Source: an uncultured Bacteroidales bacterium
GTDB lineage: Bacteria; Bacteroidota; Bacteroidia; Bacteroidales; JAGOPY01
Direction: 5' to 3'
Assembly: GCA_964489545.1 (NCBI GenBank)
Contig: CAZAZE010000001.1
Span: 337,412 to 401,411, forward strand
Length of the DNA stretch: 64,000 bases
Shown here: in pieces, positions 30,282 through 61,774 of the stretch
Layout of the letters: each line of letters begins with the position of its first letter
Numbering within the stretch: position 1 is the stretch's first letter
Program-made: the position numbers and the translations under genes
The notes under the pieces: generated by a model
Told to the model about the DNA's origin: nothing
Seen by the model: the letters and a program-made list of their open reading frames with translations, nothing else
Databases searched by the model: none

Positions 30282-32270
30282 CTAGTGTTTAGGGTTTAGA
30301 GTTTGGTGCTTAGTGTTTAATGACTGCTGACTGCTGACTGCTGACTGCTGACTGCTGACTGCTGACTGCTGACTGCCCACAGCCACCCGCAGTGTCACCA
30401 GGAAGTTGAACCCGGGCATGGGACGGTATGGGACAACCTGATAATCCATATTGAATATGTTATTTAAATTCATCTGGACGGTCAAAGGCAGGGAATGGCG
30501 CAGGGCCCATGTTTTTGATGCCACAACATCCATAAGAAAGTATCCCGGTAATGAATCCGCATTGTCTTTTGAAGTATAGATCAGACCGGTAAAATTGCCC
30601 CTGAGGAACAGCTCAAATCCCCTGAATGATATTCCTGGACGTACCGACGCCCGATGTATCGGCGTGTATATCAGCTGCTTATGATAGGATTCATCAAACT
30701 CAAACTGCTTCAGCTGGTTGGTCGACCGGGTGAAGGAATAATTGCCGTTGAAGCTTACACCCAGCCGGCCGAACTGCTGCTCATAACCGGTGCTGAGCTC
30801 TATACCCCGCGATAAGACCTTTTGTGCGTTTTCCACGGACCAAAAACTGGCCCCGGGAAGCCAGAGGATCCATCCGTCGACCAGGGAGGTATAGGCTGTC
30901 GCATCAAAACTAAGCCTGACATCCTTCAATGAGGGTTTAAGTGTCACGCCTGCTTCGAAATTCCAGCTCTTCTCCGGCTCGAGTCCGGGATTTCCACCGG
31001 GGACCCAGAAGCGTTCATTCAGTGTCGGGGCCCTGAAATTTCGGGATACGCTCAGGCGTCCGGAAAGGAATTTCCACAGCGGGCCCTGAAAGCCAGCGGA
31101 GAAGAGGAAAGGCGGACGGTAACCAGTCACGAATTCCTGCCGGCCGTTCAGGCTGAATTGCCATTTGAACGGCGTGAAATCATGGCTGAAAGACGCATAC
31201 AGGCTGATCGACTGCTGATCTTCCGCCTGGGCGTAGAAATCCAGGTCGGCAAACTCATAAGTGTACTGTACACCGGCCAGCAAAACGGAACGGGGCGAAA
31301 ATTCCAGGCTGTTCTCTGCGGATGCGGCAGCAGTCTGGCTCCTGATCACGGAGTATACTTCTCCGGAAGGATCCGTATACCGCGTAAATTCATTGAAATA
31401 GGCTATCCGGGCCTCCTGAACCGACTTACGGTTATAGTTCTTCCACGACAGCATGCCGCGCCAGGAGCGGTCGATCTGGCTGGCTTCCGATTCATTCTGG
31501 GTCAGGGTCGGGGGAATATCGCGCCCGGCATACTGAAACCACAGGCTGGCCATCAGGTACTGCTGGCCGGATAATTTAAGAGACAGGTCCTGCAAAAAAC
31601 CGCCGCGTGAAACCGAAGCATGATCCAGCTTATCACGGTTTCCATATAAATCATTATAGGAAAAATCATTCTGTGACCCGTTCAGTGACCAGGCCGTTCT
31701 CGAAAACAATTTTTCACCGGACCATTCCGCGCTCCCTTCGAGGGCAAAGGTGCGAAAACTGCCTGCAGAGAAAGCTGCGGTGATTTTAGCGGCTGAAGGA
31801 CCGAAGACCGGACGGGTGGAAAGGTGCAGGCTGCCGCCGATGGCACCGCTGCCGAATATCGGGCTGGCTCCGCCGTAAAGCAGGGATATATCCTTAAAAA
31901 AGCCGCCCTGTATCAGGGAAAGGTCGACATAACCGATATTGGGCGGGGAAACTCTGATGCCGTTCCAGAACAGGCTGGTATGGTTGGCCGAGGTGCCCCG
32001 AAGAGAAAACGTGGCCAGCGTTCCCTGTCCGTAGTTTCTCACATAAGCCCCGGTGAGGCCGGTCAGTAATTCTGATAAGGTGGCGGCAGGGATCCGCATC
32101 CGGTCCAGGCTGTCGAACGAAACTGACTGTTGCCCTTTGGCATAACGGTTGATCCTTGAAGAAGTGATGTGAACATCCGGGAGCGACAATACCGTATCGG
32201 GCGCGCTATCCTGGCCGCTTGCCGCGACCGCAGCCAGAACCATCAACCATGTCATCAATTTTCCACGCAT
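30282..32270 (-). CDS. btuB: TonB-dependent outer-membrane receptor, vitamin B12 transporter BtuB-like
   Basis: Plug and 22-strand barrel features (TonB box region DTVLSLPDVHITSS; YGGASPIFGSGAIGG). Preceded by a cobalamin riboswitch. The start is set at ATG 32270 (MRGKLMTWLMVLAAVAASG signal peptide). The last 34 codons are repeat-encoded. Confidence 0.88.
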   Translation of the reverse strand: MRGKLMTWLMVLAAVAASGQDSAPDTVLSLPDVHITSSRINRYAKGQQSVSFDSLDRMRIPAATLSELLTGLTGAYVRNYGQGTLATFSLRGTSANHTSLFWNGIRVSPPNIGYVDLSLIQGGFFKDISLLYGGASPIFGSGAIGGSLHLSTRPVFGPSAAKITAAFSAGSFRTFALEGSAEWSGEKLFSRTAWSLNGSQNDFSYNDLYGNRDKLDHASVSRGGFLQDLSLKLSGQQYLMASLWFQYAGRDIPPTLTQNESEASQIDRSWRGMLSWKNYNRKSVQEARIAYFNEFTRYTDPSGEVYSVIRSQTAAASAENSLEFSPRSVLLAGVQYTYEFADLDFYAQAEDQQSISLYASFSHDFTPFKWQFSLNGRQEFVTGYRPPFLFSAGFQGPLWKFLSGRLSVSRNFRAPTLNERFWVPGGNPGLEPEKSWNFEAGVTLKPSLKDVRLSFDATAYTSLVDGWILWLPGASFWSVENAQKVLSRGIELSTGYEQQFGRLGVSFNGNYSFTRSTNQLKQFEFDESYHKQLIYTPIHRASVRPGISFRGFELFLRGNFTGLIYTSKDNADSLPGYFLMDVVASKTWALRHSLPLTVQMNLNNIFNMDYQVVPYRPMPGFNFLVTLRVAVGSQQSAVSSQQSAVSSQQSLNTKHQTLNPKH
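30285..30376. repeat. Composite tandem heptamer array: 5 degenerate GTGTTTA units (30285-30319) plus 8 perfect TGACTGC units (30321-30376)
   Basis: Read directly from the sequence. It fills the btuB / propeller-gene junction and is translated as the btuB C-terminal tail. Confidence 0.95.
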
Positions 32271-32351
32271 GCGCTCAGATGCTCGATTATTTCCGGGGAA
32301 GTGCGATGAAAGACAGAGAAAGCCATTCAACCCGGCCTCTTACCCGGAAGC

Positions 32352-32566
32352 CTGTTTTTGATCACCAATGGCAGGTTTTCTGACTTGACCTGTCTGCCGG
32401 CGGCCTTCCCGTTCTGCGCATCGCTGAGCGGAACAGTGGCAAAGGGTGCCGGAGAACTTGGCCCGGAAGGGCCAGGGCTTACAGCAGCGGGTACTGTCCG
32501 GGATTCACACCCGGTTCCCTATTATGTCGTGTTCCATGAAACGGTTCACGACCACCATTGATCCGG
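32352..32566 (-). promoter_or_regulatory. Cobalamin (adenosylcobalamin/B12) riboswitch
   Basis: The minus strand contains AGGGAACCGGGTGTGAATCCCGGACAGTACCCGCTGCTGTAAGC, GCCACTG...GGGAAGGC, and the B12 box AAGTCAGAAAACCTGCC, in the canonical order and spacing. Confidence 0.88.
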
Positions 32567-32574
32567 CAAAGTTA
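32567..32574 (-). promoter_or_regulatory. Bacteroidota -7 promoter box (TAACTTTG) for the riboswitch-btuB transcript
   Basis: Reverse complement of caaagtta, placed just 5' of the riboswitch P1 region. Confidence 0.5.
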
Positions 32575-32704
32575 AAGATCGGCGGATTAGAAAAACCGGC
32601 AGGGATAATTTTTTATTAACCGGGTGTTGAACGGATTTTTTTTAAATTTATGCCCTCATAATAAAAGGCGGACCAGATCCGTTGTTTCTAAAGATCATTG
32701 CCCG

Positions 32705-32884
32705 ATGAAAAAATTTATCCGACTGCTGATCCTCCTGCTGGTGATTGGTTCCCTTACCGGGATAGCAAGTTCATGTTCCCTTCTGAGCGAAACCCATTCT
32801 CAGAAGTTAGCCCCTTACAAGCAGAAGAATCCCCTTCCGAAGAAGTACATCATCAACAACGGGTACAAGCCAATTGCTAAATAA
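32705..32884 (+). CDS. Small hypothetical lipoprotein (59 aa)
   Basis: MKKFIRLLILLLVIGSLTGIASSC is a signal peptide with a lipobox. The internal ATG of ORF 32624-32884 was chosen as the start. Confidence 0.4.
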   Translation: MKKFIRLLILLLVIGSLTGIASSCSLLSETHSQKLAPYKQKNPLPKKYIINNGYKPIAK

Positions 32885-32919
32885 ATCACTATTCCGGCCA
32901 GATTCAGGCCTGACCAGGA

Positions 32920-34551
32920 TCACTCTTCATCCATAAAAGGATACCGGAAATCCACGGGCGGATTGAAATTCTCCTTGATGGTCCGCGGCGACACCCAGCG
33001 CAACAGGTTCAGGTAGGACCCTGATTTGTCATTGGTTCCGGAAGCCCGGGCCCCGCCGAAAGGCTGCTGGCCGACCACCGCACCGGTGGGTTTATCATTG
33101 ATATAGAAATTCCCGGCCGCGTTCACCAGTCTTTTGGTGGTTTCGTCGATGATATACCGGTCCTGCGCGAAAATGGCCCCGGTGAGCGCATAGGGAGAGG
33201 TCTTATCGAGGATGTCGAGCGTCTGGAAATATTGGTCATCTTCATAAACGTAAATGGTCAGGATGGGCCCGAACAACTCTTCGCACATGGTGACATATTT
33301 CGGGTTCCGGGTAAGGATCACGGTGGGTTCGATGAAATAACCGACCGATTTGTCGTACTTGCCCCCGGCAATGATTTCGACATCCGGATCTTTCCGGGCC
33401 CGGTCGATATAACCGGCCAGCTTGTCAAAGGCGGCCTCGTCGATCACCGCGTTGATAAAATTCCGGAAATCCTCCACTCCGCCCATTTTCATCCCTTTCA
33501 GGTCGTCAAGCATCAGGTCCCTGATCTCCTGCCAGAGGCTTTTCGGGATATAGGCACGGGACGCGGCGGAGCATTTCTGCCCCTGGTACTCGAACGCGCC
33601 CCGGGAGAGCGCGGTGACCACCGGACGGATCTTCGCCGAAGGGTGGACCATGACAAAATCCTTCCCGCCGGTCTCACCGACGATCTTCGGGAAGGTATTG
33701 TGCAGGGCGACATTCTCCCCGATCGCCTTCCATATCTTATTGAACACTTCGCTGGAGCCGGTAAAATGCACCCCGACGAATTCCGGGTGTGTCGACATGA
33801 TCTTTCCACCCACGGGCCCGTCGACCATGATCATGTTGATCACGCCCGGGGGCAGGCCGGCCTCCCTGAATATCTCCATCAGGACATTTGCGGAATAAAT
33901 CTGGGTATTGGCCGGTTTCCAGACCACTACATTTCCCATCAGCGCCGGGGCCGAAGGAAGGTTTCCCGCGATGGATGTAAAATTAAAGGGGGTCACCGCA
34001 TAGACGAAGCCTTCCAGCGGGCGCCACTCCATTTTGTTCCATGTGCCATGCGATGAAATCGGCTGATCCATATAGATCTGCGTCATGTAATGGACGTTGA
34101 ACCTCAGAAAATCGGCCATTTCGCAGGCGGCGTCGATTTCCGCCTGGTAGGCGTTCTTCGACTGTCCCAGCATGGTGGCCGCATTGAGTTTGGCGCGGAA
34201 GGGACCGCTGATAAGGTCGGCGGCCTTGAGGAAGATGGCGGCGCGCTGATCCCAGGTGAGCGCCTGCCATTTCGGCCGGATGGCCAGCGCGGCGTTGATG
34301 GCCTGGTGCACGTGATCGCCCGTTCCTTTGTGATAATATCCCAGGGTGTGGCGGTGGTCGTGCGGCGGGCTCATGCGGATGAGCTCGCCGGTGCGCACCT
34401 CCTCCCCGCCAATAAACATGGGCACTTCAATTTCCCGCGAACGAAGGTCGGCCAGGGCTGCCTTGAGTGCAGCGCGCTCGGGTGTTCCGGGGGCATAAGT
34501 CAGCACCGGCTCATTGAAGGGAGCGGGGGCTTTGTAAAATCCTTTTGACAT
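32920..34551 (-). CDS. pruA: L-glutamate gamma-semialdehyde (1-pyrroline-5-carboxylate) dehydrogenase
   Basis: Aldehyde dehydrogenase fold with catalytic GQKCSAASR and ETGGKD. The N-terminus MSKGFYKAPAPFNEPVLTYAPG is typical of PruA. Start set at ATG 34551. Confidence 0.88.
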   Translation of the reverse strand: MSKGFYKAPAPFNEPVLTYAPGTPERAALKAALADLRSREIEVPMFIGGEEVRTGELIRMSPPHDHRHTLGYYHKGTGDHVHQAINAALAIRPKWQALTWDQRAAIFLKAADLISGPFRAKLNAATMLGQSKNAYQAEIDAACEMADFLRFNVHYMTQIYMDQPISSHGTWNKMEWRPLEGFVYAVTPFNFTSIAGNLPSAPALMGNVVVWKPANTQIYSANVLMEIFREAGLPPGVINMIMVDGPVGGKIMSTHPEFVGVHFTGSSEVFNKIWKAIGENVALHNTFPKIVGETGGKDFVMVHPSAKIRPVVTALSRGAFEYQGQKCSAASRAYIPKSLWQEIRDLMLDDLKGMKMGGVEDFRNFINAVIDEAAFDKLAGYIDRARKDPDVEIIAGGKYDKSVGYFIEPTVILTRNPKYVTMCEELFGPILTIYVYEDDQYFQTLDILDKTSPYALTGAIFAQDRYIIDETTKRLVNAAGNFYINDKPTGAVVGQQPFGGARASGTNDKSGSYLNLLRWVSPRTIKENFNPPVDFRYPFMDEE

Positions 34552-39103: not shown

Positions 39104-39117
39104 AGTAGAAAAAGAAA

Positions 39118-39156
39118 AGTTCCCGAACTTAAACCTTAAACCCTAAAACTTAAACC
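39118..39156 (-). repeat. 39-nt dispersed element, copy 1 (reverse orientation): GGTTTAAGTTTTAGGGTTTAAGGTTTAAGTTCGGGAACT
   Basis: Differs at only 2-3 positions from the copies at 41517-41555 and 49694-49732. The ftsY stop codon TAA (39150-39152) lies inside it. Confidence 0.9.
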
Positions 39157-40106
39157 TCCCCAAAGAGGCTGTCCACAAACTCATACCGGTCGAACACCTG
39201 GAGGTCGCCGATCTTTTCGCCGATTCCGATATATTTTACGGGAATCTTAAACTGGTCGGAGATCCCGATGGCGACGCCGCCTTTGGCCGTACCGTCGAGC
39301 TTGGTGAGGGCCAGTGCGTTGACTTCTGTCGCGGCGGTGAATTGCCGGGCCTGTTCGATGGCATTCTGGCCCGTGCTGGCGTCGAGTACGAGGAGCACTT
39401 CATGGGGCGCTTCGGGAATCACTTTCTGGATCACCCGTTTGATCTTGGCCAGTTCGTTCATCAGGTTGATCTTATTGTGGAGCCGTCCTGCGGTGTCGAT
39501 GATCACCACGTCGTAGCCCTGGCTGTGGGCCGCTTTCACTGTATCGAAGGCCACTGCCGCCGGATCGGCGTTCATGCCCTGGGCGATGATAGGCACCCCG
39601 GCGCGTTCGGCCCAGATGGTCAGCTGGTCAACCGCTGCGGCGCGAAAGGTGTCGGCAGCGCCGACCAGCACCGACTTGCCGGCGTTCCTGAACTGATGCG
39701 CCAGTTTGCCGATGGTTGTGGTTTTACCGACGCCGTTCACGCCGACCACCATGATCACATAGGGCCTGGGAAGCGCTTCGGAAGCGAAGTCAAACCGCTC
39801 GCCGGTCTCGTTCTCCTGCAGCAGCGCCGCAATCTCTTCCTTGAGGATGCGGTTCAACTCTTCCGTTCCGATGAACTTATCACGGGCCACCCTTTGCTGG
39901 ATCCGTTCGATGATCTTCAGGGTGGTCTCCACCCCTACGTCGCTGGTGACGAGGATCTCTTCCAGGTTATCCAGCACTTCCTCATCCACGCGCGATTTTC
40001 CGACCAGGGCGCGCGAGATCCTCGAGAAAACGCTTTGGCGGGTTTTATCCAGCCCTTTATCAAGGCTTTCTTTTTTTTCTTTGGAGAAAAACGAAAACAG
40101 GCCCAT
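39150..40106 (-). CDS. ftsY: Signal recognition particle receptor FtsY
   Basis: SRP54-type GTPase motifs GVNGVGKTTT, DTAGR and TKLDG. Confidence 0.95.
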   Translation of the reverse strand: MGLFSFFSKEKKESLDKGLDKTRQSVFSRISRALVGKSRVDEEVLDNLEEILVTSDVGVETTLKIIERIQQRVARDKFIGTEELNRILKEEIAALLQENETGERFDFASEALPRPYVIMVVGVNGVGKTTTIGKLAHQFRNAGKSVLVGAADTFRAAAVDQLTIWAERAGVPIIAQGMNADPAAVAFDTVKAAHSQGYDVVIIDTAGRLHNKINLMNELAKIKRVIQKVIPEAPHEVLLVLDASTGQNAIEQARQFTAATEVNALALTKLDGTAKGGVAIGISDQFKIPVKYIGIGEKIGDLQVFDRYEFVDSLFGEV

Positions 40107-40617: not shown

Positions 40618-41523
40618 ATGAACTGGGAGCCGTATATCAAGGGATTCAAATCATTCCTGAAGCTGGAAAAGTCGCTTTCCGACAATTCGGTGCAAGCCTA
40701 TGCACGCGACGTGGAAAAGCTTTCCCGCTTCATAAAGGAAGCCCATCCCGGCCTCGGGATCCGCGATATCCGCCTGGCTCACCTGCAGGAATTCATCAAA
40801 TGGATCAACCTGCAGGGGATGAATGCCCGGTCGCAGGCGCGGATCATCTCCGGCACCCGGGCTTTCTTCAAGTACCTGGTCCTGGAAAACATCGTCAGTT
40901 CGAGTCCGGCTGAAATGCTTGAGTTGCCCAGGACAGGCCGGGTGCTGCCCGACACCTTGCGGGTGGATGAGATCGAAAAGATGTTTTCGGTCATCGATCT
41001 GAGCACGCCGGAAGGAGAGCGCAACAAGGCGATGCTGGAATTCCTGTATGGCTGCGGCCTGCGCGTGAGCGAGCTGACCAACCTGAGGCTATCCGATATC
41101 CGGCGCCAGGAAGGCTTCATCTCGGTCATCGGCAAAGGGAACAAGCAGCGGCTGGTCCCCATCGGCGGCCGCGCCCTGAAGCAATTTGATATTTACCGTG
41201 AACGCATCCGCAGCCATATTACGCCCCAGAAGGGGCAGGAAGATTTTATTTTCCTGAACAGCCGGGGGAAGAAACTCTCCAGGGTGATGGTTTTCTACAT
41301 CATCAAACAACTTGCCGAGAAAGCGGGGATCCGCAAGACGATCAGCCCCCACACGGTGCGCCATTCATTTGCCACGCATCTGATCGAGGGAGGCGCCGAC
41401 CTGCGCGCCGTGCAGGAAATGCTCGGTCACGCTTCGATCACCACAACCGAGATCTATACCCACCTCGACCGCGACTACCTTAGGAGCAATATCCTGGAAT
41501 TCCACCCCAGAGGGAAGGTTTAA
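40618..41523 (+). CDS. xerD: Tyrosine recombinase XerD
   Basis: SAM-like N-domain plus catalytic HTVRHSFATHLIEGGADLRAVQEMLGHASITTTEIYTH. Confidence 0.88.
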   Translation: MNWEPYIKGFKSFLKLEKSLSDNSVQAYARDVEKLSRFIKEAHPGLGIRDIRLAHLQEFIKWINLQGMNARSQARIISGTRAFFKYLVLENIVSSSPAEMLELPRTGRVLPDTLRVDEIEKMFSVIDLSTPEGERNKAMLEFLYGCGLRVSELTNLRLSDIRRQEGFISVIGKGNKQRLVPIGGRALKQFDIYRERIRSHITPQKGQEDFIFLNSRGKKLSRVMVFYIIKQLAEKAGIRKTISPHTVRHSFATHLIEGGADLRAVQEMLGHASITTTEIYTHLDRDYLRSNILEFHPRGKV

Positions 41524-41609
41524 GTTTTGAGGGTTAAGGTTTAAGTTCGGGAACTTATAATTTAGAACTCCAACTTAAACCTTAAACCTTAAACCTTAAA
41601 CCTTAAAGT
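41517..41609. repeat. 39-nt dispersed element copy 2 (41517-41555) plus an inverted (CTTAAAC)4-5 arm (41564-41609); candidate bidirectional terminator
   Basis: GGTTTAAGTTTTGAGGGTTAAGGTTTAAGTTCGGGAACT, then a loop, then AGAACTCCAACTTAAACCTTAAACCTTAAACCTTAAACCTTAAAG. Both convergent stop codons are embedded in the element. Confidence 0.9.
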
Positions 41610-48808: not shown

Positions 48809-48816
48809 TAACTTTG
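48809..48816 (+). promoter_or_regulatory. Bacteroidota -7 promoter box (TAACTTTG)
   Basis: TAnnTTTG match 18 nt upstream of ATG 48834. Confidence 0.45.
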
Positions 48817-48833
48817 TACAAAGTTCTACCGCC

Positions 48834-49694
48834 ATGCCAGGGATTAAACCCACCATCATCGCCTTGCTTATCCTGATCACCGGCACACTGAAATCCCAGG
48901 TCCCGGATTTCTGCCTGACCCGGGATGAATACCGGCTGTACACCCTGATCAATGATTTTCGGGAAAAGCAGGGCCTTCCAGTCGTACCGGTCTCCCGCGC
49001 ACTCTGTTACGTGGCCAAGATCCACGCCCGCGACCTGTATCACAATAACCCCGACACCTCATTCTGCAGCCTGAACAGCTGGTCGGACAAAGGCGAATGG
49101 ACTGCGTGCTGTCATTCCCGCTTCACGCCCAATCCTTCCTGCATCGTCAACAAGCCGAAAGAACTTGCCGGGTACGCCGGCGAAGGGCATGAGCTGGTTT
49201 ACTGGGACAGCCAGGGCAATCACCCGGACACGGCCATGCGTTTCTGGACGAGCATCGCGCAGGCCCGGGAAGTTTTGCTCAATCAGAACAAATGGAGCTA
49301 TTTCAACTGGCGGGCGATGGGCGTCGGCCTGTACCAGGGATATGCCTGCGTGTGGTTCGGAGAAGTGCCGGACACACTTTCCGAGCCTACCTTGTGCGCC
49401 AATGCGGCGGGTTCAGATTTCCTGGTGCTGCCGATGAAAGGAGCGGACATGAAAGGCGTAATTACGGCACCTGAAGGCAGACACTACCTCATCTTCGGAA
49501 GTTTCAACTCATTGGAGGATGCGCAAAAAGTCGCGGAGAAATACCGCAAGGACGGGTTCTACCAGGCTAAGGTTATTGTTAAAGAAAATACGTACAGAGT
49601 GTCCCTTTCCGATCACGCCACGCAGGAAGAAGCTTTGAACGCACGGAAAATGCTTGGCACGGAATACAAAGAAGCCTGGATAACAAAATACTAG
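48834..49694 (+). CDS. CAP (SCP/PR-1-like) domain plus SPOR domain protein
   Basis: N-terminal signal. CAP-like region (LINDFREKQGLPVVPVSRALCYVAKIHARDL). C-terminal SPOR (YLIFGSFNSLEDAQKVAEKYRKDGFYQAKV...YRVSL). Confidence 0.7.
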   Translation: MPGIKPTIIALLILITGTLKSQVPDFCLTRDEYRLYTLINDFREKQGLPVVPVSRALCYVAKIHARDLYHNNPDTSFCSLNSWSDKGEWTACCHSRFTPNPSCIVNKPKELAGYAGEGHELVYWDSQGNHPDTAMRFWTSIAQAREVLLNQNKWSYFNWRAMGVGLYQGYACVWFGEVPDTLSEPTLCANAAGSDFLVLPMKGADMKGVITAPEGRHYLIFGSFNSLEDAQKVAEKYRKDGFYQAKVIVKENTYRVSLSDHATQEEALNARKMLGTEYKEAWITKY

Positions 49695-49783
49695 GTTTAA
49701 GTTTTGAGGTTTAAGGTTTAAGTTGGGGAACTTAAAACCAATGAACTTCAACTTAAACCTTAAACCTTAAACCTCAAAACTTC
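49694..49783. repeat. 39-nt dispersed element copy 3 (49694-49732) plus an inverted copy (49743-49783); candidate bidirectional terminator
   Basis: GGTTTAAGTTTTGAGGTTTAAGGTTTAAGTTGGGGAACT ... GAACTTCAACTTAAACCTTAAACCTTAAACCTCAAAACTTC. The right arm encodes the last residues (VLRFKV) and the stop of sucD. Confidence 0.9.
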
Positions 49784-50638: not shown

Positions 50639-50647
50639 GGCTTGCGA

Positions 50648-50675
50648 GTGTTTAGTGGTTTGTGTTTAGTGTTTA
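50648..50675. repeat. Tandem heptamer array (GTGTTTA x3 plus one variant), equal to TAAACAC on the sucD coding strand
   Basis: gtgttta gtggttt gtgttta gtgttta, ending 9 nt upstream of the sucD start codon. Confidence 0.9.
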
Positions 50676-50774
50676 ATTTTGAATTGACTCCTACCACTTT
50701 ACTCCTTGCACAGTTGTGGGAGGGGGCTGACGGGCAAATGTAAAGAATTTTACCCATCCCCGCCCAGTTTTCGC

Positions 50775-50804: not shown

Positions 50805-52232
50805 ATGATCTACTCATCCGAAAACCAGACCATATGCGCCATCGCGACGCCGCCGGGCCACGGCGCCATCGCCATCATCCGGGTCAGCGGACCCGAAGCG
50901 CTGCGGATCTGTGAAGCGGTTTTTGTTCCCCGTAAAGCCGGGAAAAACATCACGGAAGCCGCGACGCACACCATCCATTTCGGGACGGTCGAGCACGGCG
51001 AAGAGCTCATCGACGAGGTGCTGGTCAGCGTATTCCGGGAGCCGCACTCTTACACGGGCGAAAACGCCGTGGAGATCTCCTGCCACGGTTCGTCGTACAT
51101 CCAGCAAAAGATCGTCGAACTGCTCATCAGCCAGGGCGCCCGGCACGCGAAGCCGGGGGAATTCACGATGCGCGCCTTCCAGCACGGCAAATTCGACCTG
51201 GCGCAGGCCGAGGCGGTGGCCGACCTGATTGCCGCAGAATCCAAATCGGCCCACGACCTGGCCCTGGACCAGATGCGCGGCGGCTATTCCCGGAAGATCA
51301 GCGCACTGCGCGCCCAGTTGCTCGATTTCGCCTCGCTGATCGAACTGGAACTGGATTTCAGCCAGGAAGACGTGGAATTCGCCGACCGGCCCGCCCTGAT
51401 CAGGCTGCTGGAGGAGATCAAACCGGAGATCGTTCAGCTGGTTTCTTCCTTCTCCTACGGCAACGTGCTCAAGACCGGGATACCCGTGGCGATCGCCGGG
51501 CGGCCGAATGTCGGGAAATCGACCCTGCTCAATGCCATCCTCAACGAAGAGCGGGCCATCGTTTCGGAGATCCCCGGCACCACGCGCGATACCATTGAAG
51601 ACACGATCATCGTCAGCAATTTCGCCTTCCGGTTCATCGACACTGCCGGCCTTCGTCATTCCACCGACAAAATCGAGAACCTGGGCATCGAGAGAACCCA
51701 CGAGAAGATCCGGCAGGCGGCGATTGTTTTGTATGTGTTTGATGTTCGTGATGCCGAAGGCGAAAGGTTCCTGAACCAGTTCCAGGTTCCAGGTTCCAGG
51801 TTCCAGGATATTGATGAAGACCGCCAACTTCCGGCTGCTGACGACACGAAATTCATTTTCATTGGGAATAAATCCGATCTGCTCGAGGAGACGCCTGCCC
51901 ATTTAAAAGAACTTTTAGAAAAGCAATGCATTTTTATTTCCGCGAAACGCAAGGAGAATATCAACCTGGTCCTGGACCGGCTGGTGGAGACCGTCAGCGG
52001 GATGAACATACAGGACCGGACGGTGGTTTCCAATGTCCGGCATTTTGAAGCGCTCACAGAGGCCGGCAAAGCGGTTGACGCAGTGCTAAGCGGGCTGCAG
52101 GCCGGCCTGAGCGGCGACCTGCTCACGGTCGATCTTCGCAGCGCCCTGTTCCACCTGGGCACCATCACCGGGGAGATCACGACCGATGAGATCCTGGGGA
52201 ATATTTTCGGGAGGTTCTGTATCGGAAAGTAG
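50805..52232 (+). CDS. mnmE: tRNA modification GTPase MnmE (TrmE)
   Basis: G1 GRPNVGKSTL, G3 DTAG, G4 NKSD, and the C-terminal FCIGK tetrapeptide. Contains an in-frame heptamer-repeat insert between G3 and G4. Confidence 0.95.
   Translation: MIYSSENQTICAIATPPGHGAIAIIRVSGPEALRICEAVFVPRKAGKNITEAATHTIHFGTVEHGEELIDEVLVSVFREPHSYTGENAVEISCHGSSYIQQKIVELLISQGARHAKPGEFTMRAFQHGKFDLAQAEAVADLIAAESKSAHDLALDQMRGGYSRKISALRAQLLDFASLIELELDFSQEDVEFADRPALIRLLEEIKPEIVQLVSSFSYGNVLKTGIPVAIAGRPNVGKSTLLNAILNEERAIVSEIPGTTRDTIEDTIIVSNFAFRFIDTAGLRHSTDKIENLGIERTHEKIRQAAIVLYVFDVRDAEGERFLNQFQVPGSRFQDIDEDRQLPAADDTKFIFIGNKSDLLEETPAHLKELLEKQCIFISAKRKENINLVLDRLVETVSGMNIQDRTVVSNVRHFEALTEAGKAVDAVLSGLQAGLSGDLLTVDLRSALFHLGTITGEITTDEILGNIFGRFCIGK
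51778..51807 (+). repeat. Intragenic tandem heptamer array (AGTTCCA, then GGTTCCA x3, then GG) inside mnmE
   Basis: Read directly from the sequence. It encodes QFQVPGSRFQ and is preceded by the palindrome GGTTCCTGAACC. Confidence 0.9.
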
Positions 52233-52287
52233 GACTGTAGGACGGTAAGACGGTAAGACGGTAGGACGGTAAGACGGTAGGACGGGG
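52232..52287. repeat. Tandem octamer array (RGACGGTA x7), starting at the last base of the mnmE stop codon
   Basis: ggactgta ggacggta agacggta agacggta ggacggta agacggta ggacgggg, followed by GCATTAAAA. Confidence 0.92.
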
Positions 52288-52472
52288 GGCATTAAAATGA
52301 TTGGACTCTTGTGCCGGAGGCGCAATTTAAAATAGCACTCTACGTCCGTGCGGGTGAAAGTCCCCCATGCAACAGAATCGATTTAGATCACAGATAAATA
52401 GTAATTGTCAGGAGCTTTAGAAGACGGTATTCTCTGATTAAAAGTTCAAAAAAGTGCACTGTTAAAGATCAA

Positions 52473-55896: not shown

Positions 55897-55908
55897 CCGG
55901 AGGATCTC

Positions 55909-57125: not shown

Positions 57126-58097
57126 TCAGTCCAAAAGATATCGGTTATACCTGGCCAGAGAGGCCGGCAGCGGTGTATATCCCATTGGGGCGAGCTTATT
57201 CTGACCGGTCGTGATCATAAAATTAAGGAAATCCAGTAAAAGTGGATTTTCAGGCTTCTCTGGTGCGACCAGGTAAAGGTTCCGGCTGAGTTTGTGCGGA
57301 TAGGTGTTCATGCAGATGCTTTGCAGGAAATCATCCAATTGAGTACAGATCTGCTCCCGGTCTTCAATATCGCGGCTCATATTCAGGTCGAGCGGCAGAA
57401 ATTCCAGGTCTTCCAGTTTCTGGCCTGTATTCAGGTCGAAGGCTTCGTTCACGTTGCAAAAGCCCAGTCCGAGCGTATCCAGGCACACGGCCCGGATCAT
57501 TTCATTTTCGCCTACGACGGCCACCCCGGTGATTTCCCCGGGTTCCAAGAAGAGGAACCGGGCCACCACTTCGCCTACTCCCGAAGGATCGGCGCGATAA
57601 TAATGGTGCAGGTCTATCGCCCCCCGATTCCTGAGAAAAGCATCCCATGTTTTCATCTCCCGGGAAGTATAAATATTCTGCAGATCGCTGATTGTCAGCC
57701 CCTGTAACATAATCTGGCTGCGAAGCGGGTTATGACGGTTAAAAACGAACACTACGCCAGTTTTGGCGACAGGGATGGCAAAAAGGTCTTCCTCATCCGG
57801 TTTCAACGGGCGAGAGATCATGGCCACATCGCAGCGCCGATCATAAAGCATCTGAAGTGCGGAATCATGGCTCATGGGAATCACTGAAATTTCTGCGCCG
57901 GGTCTACTTCTTGCAAAATCTTCCGCACAGGCCTGGATGAAAGGTGCGAGGGCGTATGCGCCGCAGATAGTGATTTTGGGTTGGCCCTGGCTGGGAGGAT
58001 CGGCTGAAGCTCCTTTATCGGCCTGTTCGCCGCAACTGATCAGTATTGGGAGCAGAAAGATGAGCGCGATTCCAACGGATGGGCGATGGGGGTGCAT
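57126..58097 (-). CDS. PstS-like periplasmic substrate-binding lipoprotein (type 2 PBP fold)
   Basis: Lipobox (PILISC). ITICGAYALAPFI resembles PBP_like_2 proteins. Assignment is tentative. Confidence 0.5.
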   Translation of the reverse strand: MHPHRPSVGIALIFLLPILISCGEQADKGASADPPSQGQPKITICGAYALAPFIQACAEDFARSRPGAEISVIPMSHDSALQMLYDRRCDVAMISRPLKPDEEDLFAIPVAKTGVVFVFNRHNPLRSQIMLQGLTISDLQNIYTSREMKTWDAFLRNRGAIDLHHYYRADPSGVGEVVARFLFLEPGEITGVAVVGENEMIRAVCLDTLGLGFCNVNEAFDLNTGQKLEDLEFLPLDLNMSRDIEDREQICTQLDDFLQSICMNTYPHKLSRNLYLVAPEKPENPLLLDFLNFMITTGQNKLAPMGYTPLPASLARYNRYLLD

Positions 58098-58126
58098 GGG
58101 GATTTTTGTTCGAATTTAAAAAAAAT

Positions 58127-58155
58127 AACCTTGCAAGGGTTAAAACCCTTGCAGG
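58127..58155. repeat. REP-like hairpin, left
   Basis: ACCTTGCAAGGGTT / AACCCTTGCAGGT arms form a 12-13 bp stem with one bulge. Confidence 0.85.
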
Positions 58156-58202
58156 TCACCGGGTATATTTTCAATTTTTCCGGATTAATAGGAAAAAAGC
58201 CT

Positions 58203-58820
58203 ATGAAAGAATTAAATGCCTCATTAGTACCAGGTGGCTTCTACCATGTCTATAACAGGGCAAACGGGGATGAAGTCCTTTTCAGAAATTCCGGGAATTA
58301 CAAATATTTCCTGGAAAGCTATTATTCCTATATCAATCCGATAGCGCAGACCATATCATATTGTCTGATGCCTAATCATTTCCACTTCCTTATCCAAATA
58401 AGATCCGACCAGCACCTTATGGAAAATCTGGATAAAGAATGGATTCTCAGGAAGTCAAACTCCGTTTATGATTACGACAGAAAACTGAGCAAACTGCCGA
58501 GTCAGCAATTCTCGAACCTGTTCAATTCATATGCTTTATCATTTAATAAACAGCATAAAAGAAAAGGCAGCCTCTTCATCCGAAACTATAAAAGAATAAA
58601 GGTAAATACGGACACGTATCTTAGAGACTTGATTCTGTATATCCATTTAAACCCAGTTAAGGCAAATTATGCTCAATCTCCCGGGGATTGGGAATTCAGT
58701 TCATATGCCTCAATAATCAATAATAATGGTTCGTATGTGAATAAGGATATGTTAATTGACTTTTTTGAGGATATGAATAACTTTATCTTTGTCCACCAAA
58801 AAGCCCTGCAAGGGTTATAA
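58203..58820 (+). CDS. REP-associated tyrosine transposase (RAYT; IS200/IS605-like Y1 HUH transposase family)
   Basis: HUH motif in PNHFHFLI. Catalytic Tyr region YIHLNPVKANYAQSPGDWEFSSY. Start set at ATG 58203, because the ORF-track N-terminal extension merely translates the hairpin. Confidence 0.82.
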   Translation: MKELNASLVPGGFYHVYNRANGDEVLFRNSGNYKYFLESYYSYINPIAQTISYCLMPNHFHFLIQIRSDQHLMENLDKEWILRKSNSVYDYDRKLSKLPSQQFSNLFNSYALSFNKQHKRKGSLFIRNYKRIKVNTDTYLRDLILYIHLNPVKANYAQSPGDWEFSSYASIINNNGSYVNKDMLIDFFEDMNNFIFVHQKALQGL

Positions 58821-58833
58821 CCCTTGCAAGGTT
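58805..58833. repeat. REP-like hairpin, right (inverted copy)
   Basis: CCTGCAAGGGTTATAACCCTTGCAAGGTT. The RAYT stop codon TAA lies in its loop. Confidence 0.85.
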
Positions 58834-58846
58834 GAAATCTAACCCC

Positions 58847-60277
58847 ATGGACCGAGAAATCCTCAGCACCAACCGAAAAGCACTGAAAATCAACCTGAAT
58901 CCCAGTGTGTACGGTAGTTTCGCTGAAATAGGCGGCGGGCAGGAAGTCGCCAGGCACTTTTTCCAGGCCGGAGGCGCATCCGGCACCATCGCCAAAACCA
59001 TCTCAGCTTACGATAAAGCCTTCAGCGATGCGCTATATGAATGCAGCGAAACCGTACGTTATGTTTCCGAAGAACGGCTCAATGAAATGCTTGCCGCAGA
59101 ATACGAAGAACTCTCTTCAATCCTCGGTCAGTCGAGGGGTGGAAACACGCTGTTCTTCTCCTTCGCCAATACAGTGGAAACGCTCAATTACCAGAAAACC
59201 AACCGCGGGCATGGCTGGATCGGCATGCGTTTCCAACTCAGGCCCGAAACCCCGCCCAACCAGGTCATCCTTCATGTCAACCTCCTGGAAAACGACGGCC
59301 TGATGCAACAGGCGACACTGGGAATCCTGGGCGTTAATCTGATCTTTGCCTGTTTCATCTATTACGAATTCCCCAGCCAGTTCCTGCGCTCCCTGCTGGA
59401 TAATCTCTCCACCGACCGGCTGGAGATCACCATGATCCGGATGTCGGGACCCGACCTGGCGTATGTCGATAACCGCCTGCTGAGCGTTCAGCTCGTTAAA
59501 AACGGGATGACCAAAGCCATCATGTTCGACCGGCATGGAAATGTCAGGCAACCCTACGACATGCTGTACAAGAAAAATGTACTGGCTTTCCGGGGTAGCT
59601 TCCGGCCCGTAACCTACACCATGCTGGATATGCTCAGGACCAGTTACCGTATTTTTAAAAAAGACGAGGATTACGAAAAAGACAACACGATTTCCCTGTG
59701 TGAGATCACCCTCAATAACCTGATGCAGGAAGGGGATCTTGATGAGCGGGATTTCCTGGACCGGGTAGACTTGCTGAATGGAATGGGACAAAACGTGATG
59801 GTGTCCACCTTCCGGGAGTACTACAAACTGGTGGTCTATTTTTCGCAGTTCAGGATCCGAAAACTCAGGATCGTGATCGGGATCCCCACACTGATGAATT
59901 TCCTGGAGAAGAAATATTACACCGACCTGCGCGGCGGCATCCTGGAGGCCATGGGGAAATTCTTCATCGACAACATGAAACTGTATGTTTATCCCACCAT
60001 CTCTTCAGTATCCATCGATGATCCGACCAAAGGCGAAGAGCTCATTACCTCGGGAAATATCCTGCTGGCCGACGACATTCGCGACCTTTACCAGTACCTT
60101 ATCAAGAACAAGATGATCATTGATATTACCAATGTGAAGAAAGAATGGCTTTGGATCAACTCCCAGATTGTCATCAGCATGATCCGGGACGGAGTCCCTG
60201 GCTGGGAAGAAATGGTACCGAAGTATATTTCCGAAGAGATCAGGAAAAAGAAACTTTTCGGATATAAAGGCGATTAG
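58847..60277 (+). CDS. Conserved hypothetical protein (476 aa), function unknown
   Basis: Long ORF with gene-like composition and the N-terminal motif YGSFAEIGGGQEVARHFFQAGGASGTIAKTISAYD. Start set at ATG 58847, downstream of the hairpin. Confidence 0.65.
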   Translation: MDREILSTNRKALKINLNPSVYGSFAEIGGGQEVARHFFQAGGASGTIAKTISAYDKAFSDALYECSETVRYVSEERLNEMLAAEYEELSSILGQSRGGNTLFFSFANTVETLNYQKTNRGHGWIGMRFQLRPETPPNQVILHVNLLENDGLMQQATLGILGVNLIFACFIYYEFPSQFLRSLLDNLSTDRLEITMIRMSGPDLAYVDNRLLSVQLVKNGMTKAIMFDRHGNVRQPYDMLYKKNVLAFRGSFRPVTYTMLDMLRTSYRIFKKDEDYEKDNTISLCEITLNNLMQEGDLDERDFLDRVDLLNGMGQNVMVSTFREYYKLVVYFSQFRIRKLRIVIGIPTLMNFLEKKYYTDLRGGILEAMGKFFIDNMKLYVYPTISSVSIDDPTKGEELITSGNILLADDIRDLYQYLIKNKMIIDITNVKKEWLWINSQIVISMIRDGVPGWEEMVPKYISEEIRKKKLFGYKGD

Positions 60278-60288
60278 GCGGTCGATTG

Positions 60289-60315
60289 GCAGCAGTCAGC
60301 AGCCAGCAGTCAGCG
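60289..60315. repeat. Degenerate tandem heptamer array (GCAGTCA/CAGCAGT type)
   Basis: gcagcagtcagcagccagcagtcagcg begins 12 nt after the upstream stop. It is the same unit as the btuB-tail array (reverse complement of TGACTGC) and is followed by TTCATTAAA. Confidence 0.8.
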
Positions 60316-60373
60316 TTCATTAAATGACATTTCAATTTCAAGCTCAATCTAAACTATCAACTTTAAACTTAAC

Positions 60374-60401
60374 TTTGATCTTTGAACTTTGAACCTTGAA
60401 C
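60374..60401. repeat. Tandem heptamer array (TTTGATC, TTTGAAC x2, CTTGAAC), ending 4 nt before the rarA ATG
   Basis: Read directly from the sequence. Confidence 0.85.
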
Positions 60402-60405
60402 TGCA

Positions 60406-61671
60406 ATGTCCGTTCCTCTTGCAGAAATATTGCGGCCGAAGGGCCTGGATGATTTCCTGGGCCAGGAGCACCTGGTGGGAACGCATTCCATTCTCCGGAA
60501 AGTCATCGAATCGGGCAGGATCCCGTCGATGATCTTCTGGGGGCCGCCGGGCGTCGGGAAAACCACGCTGGCCCATATCATCAGCGGTCAGCTGGGCGTT
60601 CCTTTCTTCACGCTCAGCGCTGTCAGTTCAGGTGTTAAGGAGGTGCGCAGCGTCATCGAACAGGCCGGTGATTCTCCCACGGGGGCCATACTTTTCATCG
60701 ATGAAATCCACCGATTCAGCAAATCCCAGCAGGATTCGCTGCTGGGGGCCGTGGAAAAGGGCGTGATCACCCTGATCGGCGCCACTACTGAGAACCCGTC
60801 CTTTGAGGTCATCTCTCCCCTGCTGTCGCGCTGCCAGGTTTATATCCTGAAATCACTGGGCAAGGATGATCTGCTGAAATTACTCGCCAGTGCCATTTCA
60901 TACCTGGAAACACTGCACCAGAAAAAAATCAAACTGCAAGAGGATGAGGCCCTGCTGCGGATCTCCGGCGGGGATGCGCGCAAACTCCTTAATGCGCTTG
61001 AGCTTATCGTCAATACGGATATAAAGAACGATCCGATCGTCATCACCAACGAAAAAGCGCTGAGCATCATCCAGGAAAAACTGGCGATCTATGACAAGGG
61101 CGGCGAGATGCACTACGACGTGATCTCGGCCTTCATCAAATCGCTGCGCGGCAGCGATCCCAACGGGGCGGTCTACTGGCTGGCCCGGATGATCGAAGGC
61201 GGCGAGGACCCGCTCTTCATCGCGCGCCGGATGGTGATCCTGGCTTCGGAAGATATCGGAAACGCCAATCCCAACGCACTGCTGCTGGCCAATACCTGCT
61301 TCGACGCCATCCACAAGATCGGTATGCCCGAAGGCCGGATCATCCTGTCGCAAACGGCCGTCTACCTGGCCACTTCACCCAAGAGCAACGCATCGTACAT
61401 GGCGATCGAGGCGGCCATTGAAGAAACCCACCGGACGGGGGACCTGCCGGTGCCGCTGGCCATCCGCAACGCCCCGACAAGGCTGATGAAGGAGATCGGC
61501 TATGGGAAGAATTATCATTATGCCCATTCTTATGAAGGAAACTTCATTGAAATGGAATTCCTTCCTGATAAAATCAAAGGGAAAAAATTCTATGAACCAG
61601 GCAAAAACCGTAAGGAGGAAGAAATCCGGGCCTGGCTGAAGGCCAGGTGGAAGGAGAAATATGGCTATTAG
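60406..61671 (+). CDS. rarA: Replication-associated recombination protein A (MgsA/RarA AAA+ ATPase)
   Basis: Walker A GPPGVGKTT, Walker B ILFIDEIHRF, and the MgsA C-terminal domain (YDVISAFIKSLRGSDPNGAVYWLARM). Confidence 0.93.
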   Translation: MSVPLAEILRPKGLDDFLGQEHLVGTHSILRKVIESGRIPSMIFWGPPGVGKTTLAHIISGQLGVPFFTLSAVSSGVKEVRSVIEQAGDSPTGAILFIDEIHRFSKSQQDSLLGAVEKGVITLIGATTENPSFEVISPLLSRCQVYILKSLGKDDLLKLLASAISYLETLHQKKIKLQEDEALLRISGGDARKLLNALELIVNTDIKNDPIVITNEKALSIIQEKLAIYDKGGEMHYDVISAFIKSLRGSDPNGAVYWLARMIEGGEDPLFIARRMVILASEDIGNANPNALLLANTCFDAIHKIGMPEGRIILSQTAVYLATSPKSNASYMAIEAAIEETHRTGDLPVPLAIRNAPTRLMKEIGYGKNYHYAHSYEGNFIEMEFLPDKIKGKKFYEPGKNRKEEEIRAWLKARWKEKYGY

Positions 61672-61672
61672 C

Positions 61673-61707
61673 TTAAGGTTTAAGGTTTAAGGTTTAAGGT
61701 TTAAGTT
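61673..61707. repeat. Tandem heptamer array (TTAAGGT x4 plus TTAAGTT), starting 2 nt after the rarA stop
   Basis: Read directly from the sequence. It is the same unit as in the 39-nt dispersed element. Confidence 0.95.
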
Positions 61708-61732
61708 TAATTTTACACTAAGCCCTGAGCCC

Positions 61733-61774
61733 TAAACACTAAACACTAAACACTAAACACTAAACACTAAACAA
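61733..61774. repeat. Tandem heptamer array (TAAACAC x5 plus TAAACAA), ending 6 nt before the kdsA ATG
   Basis: Read directly from the sequence. Confidence 0.95.

Follow-up and report, generated by a model that had tools for sequence, protein, structure and literature searches.

We report that some gene boundaries in a 64,000-nt stretch of an uncultured Bacteroidales genome (GenBank assembly GCA_964489545.1, contig CAZAZE010000001.1, positions 337,412 to 401,411 of the forward strand; hereafter the window) carry tandem arrays of 7-nt, occasionally 8-nt, units, whose strand depends on whether they follow a stop codon or precede a start codon. The observation is real and statistically solid; the function of the arrays is unproven from sequence. 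They belong to the heptanucleotide simple sequence repeats (SSRs), grouped with the long simple sequence repeats (LSSRs) and short tandemly repeated repetitive (STRR) sequences of bacteria, a class that has already been described, together with its polarity. What is new is the lineage, the units, the bipartite modular layout of the spacers, the conservation of array positions while the units turn over, the co-varying arms of inverted arrays and a recurrent 3′ composite. The explanation we favor, with about as much doubt as belief, is that the arrays are slippage-driven heptanucleotide (and a few octanucleotide) SSRs in the spacers of one uncultured Bacteroidales lineage, filtered by selection on transcripts.

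Tandem Repeats Finder (TRF) listed 40 rows for the window, the strong ones almost all of period 7. At a score of at least 40, 13 arrays of period 7 or 8 were found, against none in 50 dinucleotide-preserving shuffles, which gives the head-to-tail 7-nt arrangement of the LSSR/STRR class. Spacers account for 8.5% of the window, yet 12 of the 13 arrays fall within or overlap them, which is the non-coding bias of that class as well. An earlier reading of this DNA from the sequence only had listed eleven loci, whose coordinates and units were borne out by TRF; arrays are present at all of them, although two (3414–3450 and 12371–12386) hold only ~2–3 copies each and are weak taken alone. Its statement that arrays form gene boundaries across the window was overstated: strong lag-7/8 periodicity is found in 8 of the 37 spacers of at least 25 nt, about a fifth, all of them between 30 and 62 kb and none in the half that holds the ribosomal and rpoBC genes. 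The flanking genes encode, by Pfam, a DUF5074 beta-propeller, a TonB receptor, FtsY, a XerD-like protein, a SPOR protein, SucD, MnmE, RarA, KdsA and RpoB. The window is assigned to Bacteroidota by its rplKAJL-rpoBC gene order with a full-length rpoC, by TAnnTTTG promoter boxes and by the relatives of its proteins. Rfam 15 at gathering threshold gave no match at any array, its only matches in the window being a cobalamin riboswitch and 7 tRNAs. Cyanobacterial STRR units include CCCCAGT, TTGGTCA and CAACAGT; neither these nor the published heptamers TAACTGA, GGGAATC and GGGGAYT occur as tandem copies in the window, and one TTGGTCA doublet was seen in an unrelated locus (L020). The window units are therefore new, and membership of the general heptamer class does not hinge on unit identity.

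The arrays are not assembly artifacts, because the imperfect ones can be read base for base in independent Logan unitigs, which come from 10 or more SRA runs. The unitigs of this organism end inside every array longer than ~31 nt (L001, L082–L091, L104–L114), from which it follows that array 31-mers are multi-copy in the genome. Our comparison of copy number with other samples was made through these unitigs (k=31) and so covers the imperfect arrays, perfect arrays not being sizeable in this way. Short-read assemblies of the lineage at k=31 will fragment at gene boundaries, and the copy numbers of perfect arrays in metagenome-assembled genomes (MAGs) may mislead.

Between genes in tandem, the order is stop codon, G/T-containing array, G-poor A/C/T array, start codon. 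Three spacers have this layout. Downstream of rarA, (TTAAGGT)×5.6 (61673–61710, plus strand) starts 1 nt after the TAG, with Logan unitig L001 breaking inside it, and is followed by a perfect G-free (CTAAACA)×6 (61732–61773, plus) that ends 7 nt before the kdsA ATG and leaves 0% G in positions −40 to −1. Upstream of rarA, a module made of (CAGCAGT = GCAGTCA)×3.6 and CATTAAA (60290–60324, plus; TRF row 60290–60314) begins 12 nt past the stop of the open reading frame (ORF) at 58832–60277, and (AACTTTG)×6.6 (60359–60402, plus) ends 3 nt before the rarA ATG. On the minus strand, between the TonB receptor and the DUF5074 gene, a perfect (GCAGTCA)×8 (TGACTGC ×8 at 30321–30376) runs into CATTAAA (30316–30322), the whole module spanning 30316–30376; a degenerate array at 30283–30319, (TAAACAC)×5.3 on the coding strand and TAGTGTT by TRF, comes next, with 7 nt between its end and the DUF5074 ATG (30275). 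This array lies within a btuB-type operon, 3′ of the cobalamin riboswitch. The modules at 60290–60324 and 30316–30376(−) are the same composite, 91% complementary over 35 nt. A third CATTAAA (52290–52296) closes the module after mnmE, which consists of (GTAGGACG/GTAAGACG)×7.1 with period 8 and a run of six G (52229–52296, plus; TRF row 52229–52285). As the sequence-only reading had noticed, this motif sits at array junctions: it occurs 4 times in the window against 8.7 expected, and 3 of the 4 copies come directly after a 3′ array.

Between convergent genes, an array runs inward from each stop and the two are reverse complements of each other, which yields elements of ~90 nt able to form hairpins. 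The first (41516–41609, both strands; TRF row 41574–41607, imperfect arm 41516–41547) separates the xerD-like gene from a 152-aa ORF and is composed of the arm AGGTTTA AGTTTTG AGGGTTA AGGTTTA, then AAGTTCGGGAACTT and a loop, then (TAAACCT)×4.9; the arms contain the stops of both genes and are complementary at 30 of 33 positions. Its paralog (49693–49783, both strands; TRF rows 49693–49722 and 49752–49782) lies between the SPOR gene and sucD, the arms containing the SPOR TAG and the last sucD codons with their TAA. Both fold as RNA at −36 to −44 kcal/mol, with z between −4.4 and −6.2 on either strand (−44 and −39 kcal/mol with z −5.4 and −4.4 for 41516–41609; z about −6.2 for 49693–49783). Positions 41516–41560 and 49693–49737 share 93% identity, and both the odd units AGTTTTG/AGGKTTA and the non-repeat palindrome AAGTTSGGGAACTT are part of the match. 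The module after ftsY (39110–39157, minus; TRF row 39128–39157) combines an AGGTTTA-type array with the palindrome AAGTTCGGGAACTT and a T-rich tail. It amounts to half of such an element, 87–93% identical to 41512–41563 and 49693–49733; extended to 39161, it is a half copy in reverse-complement orientation.

Between divergent genes, a G-poor array stands in the leader, as in sucD, where (TAAACAC)×4.1 (50647–50675, minus) lies in the 5′ untranslated region (UTR) 8–9 nt before the ATG, downstream of a −7 box, TACATTTG, at 50742–50735(−). A scan for the −7 motif TAnnTTTG both placed the sucD array in the 5′ UTR in this way and found a perfect Bacteroidota −7 box, TAACTTTG (60370–60377), inside the rarA leader array, whose unit AACTTTG is the core of the box and looks like a promoter element multiplied by slippage. 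No TAnnTTTG box is present in the rarA–kdsA or btuB–DUF5074 spacers. A promoter role for the arrays in general was rejected, since the AGTTTTG unit matches the −7 box at only 7 of 8 positions and would fire into convergent genes, AACTTTG being the exception. A sigma-70 consensus scan, a model unsuited to Bacteroidota, gave counts not above shuffles.

The arrays meet the coding sequences closely. G-poor arrays stop 3–9 nt short of the ATG of rarA, kdsA, sucD and the DUF5074 gene, and a weak member, (TAAAACCT)×2.1 (12371–12387, plus), runs into the TTG start of rpoB; arrays thus lie 0–9 nt before 5 starts, the placement that MacGregor 2015 reported for another heptamer (PMC4679880). At the other end, the first array unit contains the stop codon of the xerD-like gene, the SPOR gene (TAG), ftsY (TAA) and mnmE (TAG). 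As had been proposed from the sequence, some arrays also replace the 3′ end of a gene: SucD ends ...EVL-RFKV*, its final four codons and stop being array-encoded, and the ORF of the TonB receptor runs ~30 codons past the barrel end (the barrel profile ends at residue 625 of 682) through (GCAGTCA)8, because this unit has no stop in any frame. The resulting tail is AVGSQQSAVSSQQSAVSSQQSLNTKHQTLNPKH; a tail of some kind is produced at any copy number, which is odd for an outer-membrane barrel. Within mnmE, an in-frame (GTTCCAG)×4.1 (51779–51807, plus) encodes QFQVPGSRFQ in a variable loop ahead of the NKSD motif. The supply of stop codons or C-terminal tails by arrays is among the new points, as are the at least 8 new units in bipartite stop-array/array-start spacers. 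Since arrays shift called stop codons, they affect the annotation of MAGs. An idea put forward earlier, that the arrays are frame-independent stop modules combined with hairpin terminators, does not hold in general: on the coding strand, a stop is missing from about half of the 3′ units (GCAGTCA/CAGCAGT in the window; TTCCAGG, AGTTGGC, GTTCAAA, TTGGACAG and TTTACAG in relatives), and the array hairpins are long AU-rich stems that lack the T-run (U-tract) of an intrinsic terminator.

The distances proposed earlier for G-containing arrays at or after stops and G-poor arrays before starts hold, and all 11 skewed arrays of the window fit this polarity (G>C in the 7 that follow stops, C>G in the 4 that precede starts), the remaining 2 being neutral. 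The rule "G after stop, C before start" is arithmetically equivalent to a statement on spacers: read on either strand, each of them goes from a G-arm to a C-arm. As background we used 80 loci recovered from genome contigs by a RarA search; the best match was a Bacteroidales MAG protein of 74% identity, for which reason the loci serve as background and not as orthologs. In 1.43 Mb of other Bacteroidota loci, period 7 is again the commonest TRF class (44 arrays; period 6 has 2 and period 8 has 9), at a density ~6-fold lower (0.03 vs 0.2 arrays per kb), although a few lineages are equally rich; some units recur in distant MAGs (CCTTAAA in L005, ACACTAA in L033, TAACACC in L022). Outside the window, arrays within 15 nt of a stop show 21 G>C against 6 C>G (duplicate loci included), and in convergent spacers 11 arrays fit the polarity and 3 do not. 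The strand placement described by Rehm 2015 is therefore found in the window and on the stop side outside it, the start side outside being not significant; elsewhere, the polarity amounts to a tendency and not to a law. In L100 (reverse complement) and L103 (3340–3720), in addition, tRNA genes are bordered by AGGTTTA/TAAACCT arrays, the C-version on their upstream side and the G-version together with the palindrome on their downstream side, which shows that polarity is not tied to translation start or stop as such.

Several other readings were considered. Units of the window contain at most GG (AGGTTTA, GGACGGTA) or no G-run at all (GCAGTCA, TAAACAC, AACTTTG), and only GGGTTCC(A) of the relatives has a qualifying tract of three to four G; G-quadruplexes are thus rejected for most units, and the polarity is not a G-quadruplex effect because the units here cannot form them. 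Avoidance of Rho and rut sites as the cause of the stop-side polarity argues the wrong way for convergent genes. Pairing between the 5′ and 3′ arrays of one gene, as in mRNA circularization or rRNA-like processing stems, was prompted by the tRNA-flanking arrays in L100 and is not general: the two ends of single window genes carry non-complementary units (TAAACAC vs AGGTTTA for sucD; AACTTTG vs TTAAGGT for rarA).

Syntenic loci of two sister species were found through members of the SucD cluster: species B, with two strains (L092/L094 and L093/L095), and species C (L096–L099), whose MnmE proteins are 75–77% identical to that of the window. The same gene boundaries keep arrays in these species while the unit sequence changes. 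The sucD leader has TAAACAC in the window, ATTAAGA/ATTAAAC in species B and AATTTAA in species C, each time downstream of a conserved TAYATTTG box; the mnmE 3′ end has GGACGGTA in the window, TTGGACAG in species B and GTTAAGG plus palindrome in species C. Between the window and species C, TTAAGGT is exchanged for TTCCAGG(G) at the rarA 3′ end, CTAAACA for TTTTAAA at the kdsA 5′ end and AACTTTG for TTTAAAA at the rarA 5′ end, and between the window and species B, AGGTTTA for TGAAACT at the xerD 3′ end. The in-frame array of mnmE is found at the same codon in species B, as GGGTTCC ×3.7 (L093 8854–8879), the two together encoding QF(Q/R)VPGS(R/G)FQ; the loop is wholly replaced in species C. Whole spacers turn over too: the AGGTTTA hairpin between sucD and the SPOR gene is absent from species B, where the genes overlap by 4 nt, and in species C a 278-nt spacer holds GTKCAAA arms around a canonical bidirectional terminator.

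Arrays gain and lose whole units between strains. Within the species of the window, two samples (L105, L107) have 2 AGGTTTA units where the window has 3 in the sucD-side arm, an exact 7-nt gap that lies beyond the stop of sucD and does not alter the protein. The two strains of species B differ in CTGTCCAA (11.4 vs 15.4 units) and in ATTCWAG (4.4 vs 8.4 units), with identical flanks. This is the whole-unit length polymorphism of the LSSR/STRR class, and it bears out the suggestion made earlier from the sequence that slippage changes copy number. Moreover, where one imperfect array is present in inverted copies at both ends of a spacer, the copies change in concert. The spacer between the SPOR and fn3 genes contains an arm (34 nt long in species B, 31 nt in species C) whose exact reverse complement lies 246 nt away in species B and 53 nt away in species C, and at all 4 positions where the arms of the two species differ, the change is mirrored on the opposite arm.

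The claim that no described class fits these elements did not survive a comparison with the literature, heptanucleotide SSRs having been described before (PMC4679880; PMC4692102). Heptamers have been known as the over-represented SSR length in bacteria since 2007 and were attributed to polymerase slippage (Mrazek 2007, as cited in PMC4679880 and PMC4692102). Rehm 2015 found arrays of GGGAATC in Xanthomonas and GGGGAYT in Nostoc, ~90% intergenic, with the G-rich strand coding 0–50 bp past a stop (overlap with the stop included) or non-coding just 5′ of an ORF; the arrays were closer to the 5′ neighboring ORF in any orientation, in some cases formed inverted pairs, had housekeeping neighbors and varied in length and sequence at conserved loci of sister species, and no function was identified (PMC4692102). 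MacGregor 2015 described TAACTGA arrays in forward orientation a few nt 5′ of starts lacking a Shine-Dalgarno (SD) sequence in marine Beggiatoaceae, some cyanobacteria and five Bacteroidetes, some of them reversed after stops and a few within ORFs, along with other heptamers in the spacers of those Bacteroidetes, and proposed a translation role through S1, Csp or CsrA-like proteins (PMC4679880). The class is not new because Rehm 2015 reports the polarity and MacGregor 2015 the start-adjacent heptamers.

The Xanthomonas and Nostoc arrays share with ours the tandem 7-nt units, the intergenic position, the polarity, the inverted pairs, the conserved loci with varied sequence and the housekeeping neighbors. 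However, those genomes have a single unit with a G3–4 tract that can form quadruplexes, whereas here at least 8 unrelated units occur, most of them without G-tracts (AGGTTTA, TAAACAC, GCAGTCA, AACTTTG); one spacer often holds two different arrays (a 3′ and a 5′ module), dispersed composites include a non-repeat palindrome, and the phylum is a different one, without SD pairing. The TAACTGA arrays are alike in lying a few nt upstream of starts, sometimes reversed after stops and in a few cases inside ORFs, but consist of a single unit per genome, one that is absent here as a repeat; the bipartite stop-array/array-start layout, the hairpin pairs and the positional conservation with unit turnover are not described in MacGregor 2015. 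The LSSRs (5–11 nt, heptamers dominant; Mrazek 2007 via PMC4679880 and PMC4692102) share the heptamer excess, the intergenic bias, the several units per genome and the proposed slippage origin, and the cyanobacterial STRR heptanucleotides (Calothrix PCC 7601, cited in PMC4692102) are grouped with them as a near class; in the summaries of LSSRs and STRRs given in PMC4679880 and PMC4692102, Bacteroidales are not highlighted and no polarity, module structure or composites are described. The present arrays thus extend the phenomenon to Bacteroidota and to units unable to form G-quadruplexes. While the heptamer excess has been known since 2007 and the strand polarity at starts and stops since 2015, a function or mechanism has not been established.

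According to the explanation we favor, arrays would arise and be homogenized by replication slippage, and inverted partners would be made and kept matched by template switching (quasi-palindrome correction). A deletion bias would remove other spacer DNA until the arrays abut coding sequence or provide the stop codon, and selection on the transcript would set which strand is permitted at each position. Beside starts, essentially only the G-poor, A/C-rich strand would be tolerated, being unstructured and mostly free of start codons, and the complementary G/T-rich strand would then fall after 3′ ends. The G-poor strand fits next to starts because Bacteroidota tune initiation by mRNA structure, without SD pairing, as described for Bacteroidia in PMC6847099. 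The arrays would then be tolerated and partly exapted spacer filler, as leader pads and convergent hairpins, rather than a dedicated signaling system. As to the suggestion that unstructured C/A-rich leaders act as translation enhancers, array leaders are G-poor (8% vs 17% G), the sucD array is placed in a 5′ UTR, and array leaders are predicted to be less folded than shuffles or other genes, though not significantly. Bacteroidota background leaders are G-depleted in any case (11.9% G vs 16.1% C in −30 to −1, n=736). In the btuB–DUF5074 spacer, 30270–30385(−) is predicted to be less structured than its shuffles (z +1.27). An enhancer role is consistent with these predictions but unproven.

A number of observations weigh against this explanation. 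The start-region energy of array-led genes averages −6.0 kcal/mol against −8.8 for the others, a difference that is not significant (p = 0.10, n = 5), and outside the window start-adjacent arrays (≤15 nt) divide into 6 C>G and 5 G>C, also not significant, while background tandem spacers hold 10 arrays that fit the polarity and 8 that do not. Polarity is also present in convergent spacers, which have no start codon to exert selection, and around tRNA genes (L100, L103), so that the leader argument cannot be the whole story. The arrays persist across ~25% divergence of MnmE, which is long for neutral SSRs. Finally, independent slippage does not predict the dispersed composites: the same imperfections together with the palindrome AAGTTSGGGAAYTT are shared by the window (3 copies), at least 4 unrelated metagenome contigs and species C, and (GCAGTCA)n with CATTAAA occurs twice, after the TonB receptor and after ORF 58832–60277. 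The composites, the polarity in convergent and tRNA spacers and the long persistence are thus not fully explained.

The window has 3 copies of the composite of an AGGTTTA-type array with AAGTTSGGGAAYTT, and all loci analyzed together have 10, always after 3′ ends or at spacer edges, including mnmE of species C and both sides of tRNA genes. Such dispersal would suit a second explanation, possible though tentative, under which the arrays are dedicated gene-punctuation modules and selection acts on periodic "array-ness" and not on the exact unit. A 3′ module made of a G/T-rich heptad array followed by AAGTTSGGGAAYTT or CATTAAA and ending in an A/T-rich tail would mark transcript ends as a terminator, a processing site, a 3′-end protection element or a platform for a protein with ~7 nt per domain (of cold-shock, S1 or RRM type), and the G-free 5′ module would be an SD-independent ribosome landing pad. 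The same composite 3′ module indeed recurs in six contigs or organisms, 0–10 nt past the stops of unrelated genes and also after a tRNA, the otherwise rare CATTAAA follows three 3′ arrays, and orthologous boundaries keep arrays despite unit turnover. In species C, convergent genes both have the same array right after the stop, with a canonical bidirectional terminator between the arms, so that each mRNA would carry the array and not its complement. C-to-T changes in the palindrome preserve G-U pairs (L096, L100), and the mirrored changes at 4 of 4 differing arm positions point the same way, although co-variation of arms can also be obtained by template switching without selection. However, the palindrome stem has only 5 bp with one G-C pair, U-tracts follow only about half of the copies, and a terminator-like scan was not above shuffles, a single hit (39170–39153) touching an array. 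A terminator role is awkward for the ftsY 3′ module, since only 7 nt without any promoter box separate it from the codirectional gene that follows. Species B lacks any sucD/SPOR spacer, and the module is therefore dispensable there; in the window, arrays occupy only 8 of the 37 spacers.

The composites can also be read as traces of mobility. Repetitive extragenic palindromes (REPs) of Proteobacteria, with their bacterial interspersed mosaic element (BIME) and REPIN assemblies, are extragenic, lie after stops or between convergent genes, and form inverted and tandem clusters and hairpins with complementary arms; stabilization of the mRNA upstream and attenuation of transcription are roles ascribed to them. 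They are fixed palindromes, 20–40 nt long, that depend on a REP-associated tyrosine transposase (RAYT) and show no whole-unit variation. The elements described here share the extragenic, post-stop and convergent positions, the inverted and tandem clusters, the hairpins and the complementary arms, and differ in being arrays of 7-nt units that vary by whole units. They might accordingly be small non-autonomous, copy-pasted palindromic elements with heptamer arms, REPIN/BIME-like or resembling MITEs (miniature transposable elements with inverted repeats), spread by recombination or by a transposase encoded elsewhere; polarity would then come for free, because a palindrome that begins with its G-arm looks the same in both orientations. 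The homology of 41516–41609 and 49693–49783 from end to end, imperfect units and loop included, and the half copy at 39110–39157 speak for this, as do the tandem and inverted module clusters after stops, BIME-like in L100 and L101, the "empty" sucD|SPOR junction of species B and the breaking of Logan unitigs in each long array. The exact junction 21-mer was matched in 4 unrelated contigs, yet these were the only matches in 241 million metagenome records. A distant sheep-rectum Bacteroidales MAG (L005; RarA 70% identical) holds three copies of another composite with a shared unique tail, built of (GACAAAA)n, (AGACTTT/AGTCTTT)n and (CCTTAAA)n (regions 14057–14156, 17416–17530, 17580–17671 and 19170–19292; the A-rich tail identical in the first two copies and similar in the third), so that multi-array composites are not unique to the lineage of the window; the same MAG has a (GATTAAG)×17.6 array at the contig end.

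On the other hand, neither full element has a target-site duplication (flanks GGGA|..|AAAG and TACT|..|CATG), so that of the two marks of a MITE, terminal inverted repeats and such a duplication, only the 33-nt arms are present. No Y1_Tnp (RAYT) or other transposase domain was found among the 48 ORFs of the window that were scanned (~50 in an ORF-based gene map). Of an earlier suggestion that the arrays are MITE or REP remnants, the dispersal of imperfect copies stands, and duplication and transposase are missing. Lone half-elements obey the polarity (50647, 52229 and 39128 in the window; L093 8335), which an orientation-blind palindrome does not predict. Most arrays (TAAACAC, GGACGGTA, AACTTTG and the TTAAGGT/CTAAACA pairs) are not palindromic composites, and slippage better accounts for the unit-by-unit variation. 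Mobility is, like punctuation, a serious rival explanation, but we regard it as doubtful.

A bolder form of the punctuation idea, which we consider unlikely, is that the 7-nt arrays are a gene-punctuation code of an uncultured Bacteroidales family and that their reader is a protein, or a component of the ribosome, covering ~7 nt. The 3′ module (array plus AAGTTSGGGAAYTT or CATTAAA) would define or protect transcript ends and the G-free array would replace SD pairing. Such a code would account for the conservation of "array-ness" and strand in the face of a drifting unit sequence, and would be the first mechanistic explanation for the polarity of heptamer SSRs across phyla. Highly improbable, lastly, is that the arrays are phase-variation or expression "rheostat" contingency loci whose copy number in promoters or leaders is selected to tune a gene: copy number does vary by whole units between strains and the rarA array multiplies a −7 promoter core, but the neighbors are housekeeping genes (sucD, kdsA, rarA, ftsY, mnmE, xerD) and not surface or contingency genes, which makes phase variation unlikely, most arrays lie after stops or between convergent genes with no obvious regulatory role for spacing, and the sole intraspecific change seen is 3′ of the sucD stop, with the protein unaltered. 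For the arrays of Xanthomonas and Nostoc, the conclusion of Rehm 2015 was likewise negative (PMC4692102).

Three sister species with different units at the same boundaries, co-varying arms and strain differences of one unit provide a comparative handle on these explanations. If G-free leader arrays enhance initiation, they would be a natural example of ribosome landing sites in SD-independent bacteria; if not, they would be a clean case of slippage, template switching and deletion bias rebuilding spacers and even protein C-termini.

Further features of these loci were recorded alongside the arrays. The −7 box occurs as TAACTTTG five times in the window; one of these boxes, upstream of the SPOR gene, is at the margin of a perfect 16-nt palindrome, AACTTTGTACAAAGTT (48810–48825; region 48809–48825). 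In L102, another ORF (1475–2977) has in-frame arrays, GTCAGCG ×2.7 and GGAACCG ×4.7 (L102 2509–2574). The two strains of species B (L092/L094 vs L093/L095) differ by a block downstream of mnmE, with integrase, AAA_25 and DUF6371 genes in one strain and a HipA/HTH toxin-antitoxin pair with the CTGTCCAA array in the other. The cobalamin riboswitch (32353–32574, 103 bits) precedes the TonB-dependent receptor and DUF5074 beta-propeller genes (30282–32574, minus), a set that looks like a B12-uptake operon.

The weak member at 3414–3450 (plus; by TRF a degenerate GGGACGAT/GGACGAT array of ~3 copies) adjoins a duplicated tRNA fragment: a 29-nt piece of tRNA-Val (tRNA 3257–3332, minus) at 3305–3333 has a duplicate at 3381–3409, exactly 76 nt away, an arrangement that resembles the scar left by an integration event at the tRNA. 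The 64 kb contain two tyrosine recombinase genes of the XerC/XerD type; one (6145–7032) is next to a tRNA cluster and a ribosome hibernation factor, and the second (40618–41523) is directly upstream of the hairpin element at 41516–41609. A 29-nt hairpin palindrome, CCTTGCAAGGGTTwwAACCCTTGCAGG, occurs at 58127–58155 and 58805–58833; the two copies are 97% mutually complementary, both are terminator-like on the minus strand, and they bracket an ORF (58086–58820) with no Pfam match. This pair is a different, REP-like repeat unrelated to the heptamers. Equally unrelated to the arrays is a 27-nt repeat (×2.3) in rplL (11956–12017), an ordinary coding repeat that encodes the Ala/Gly-rich hinge of L7/L12.

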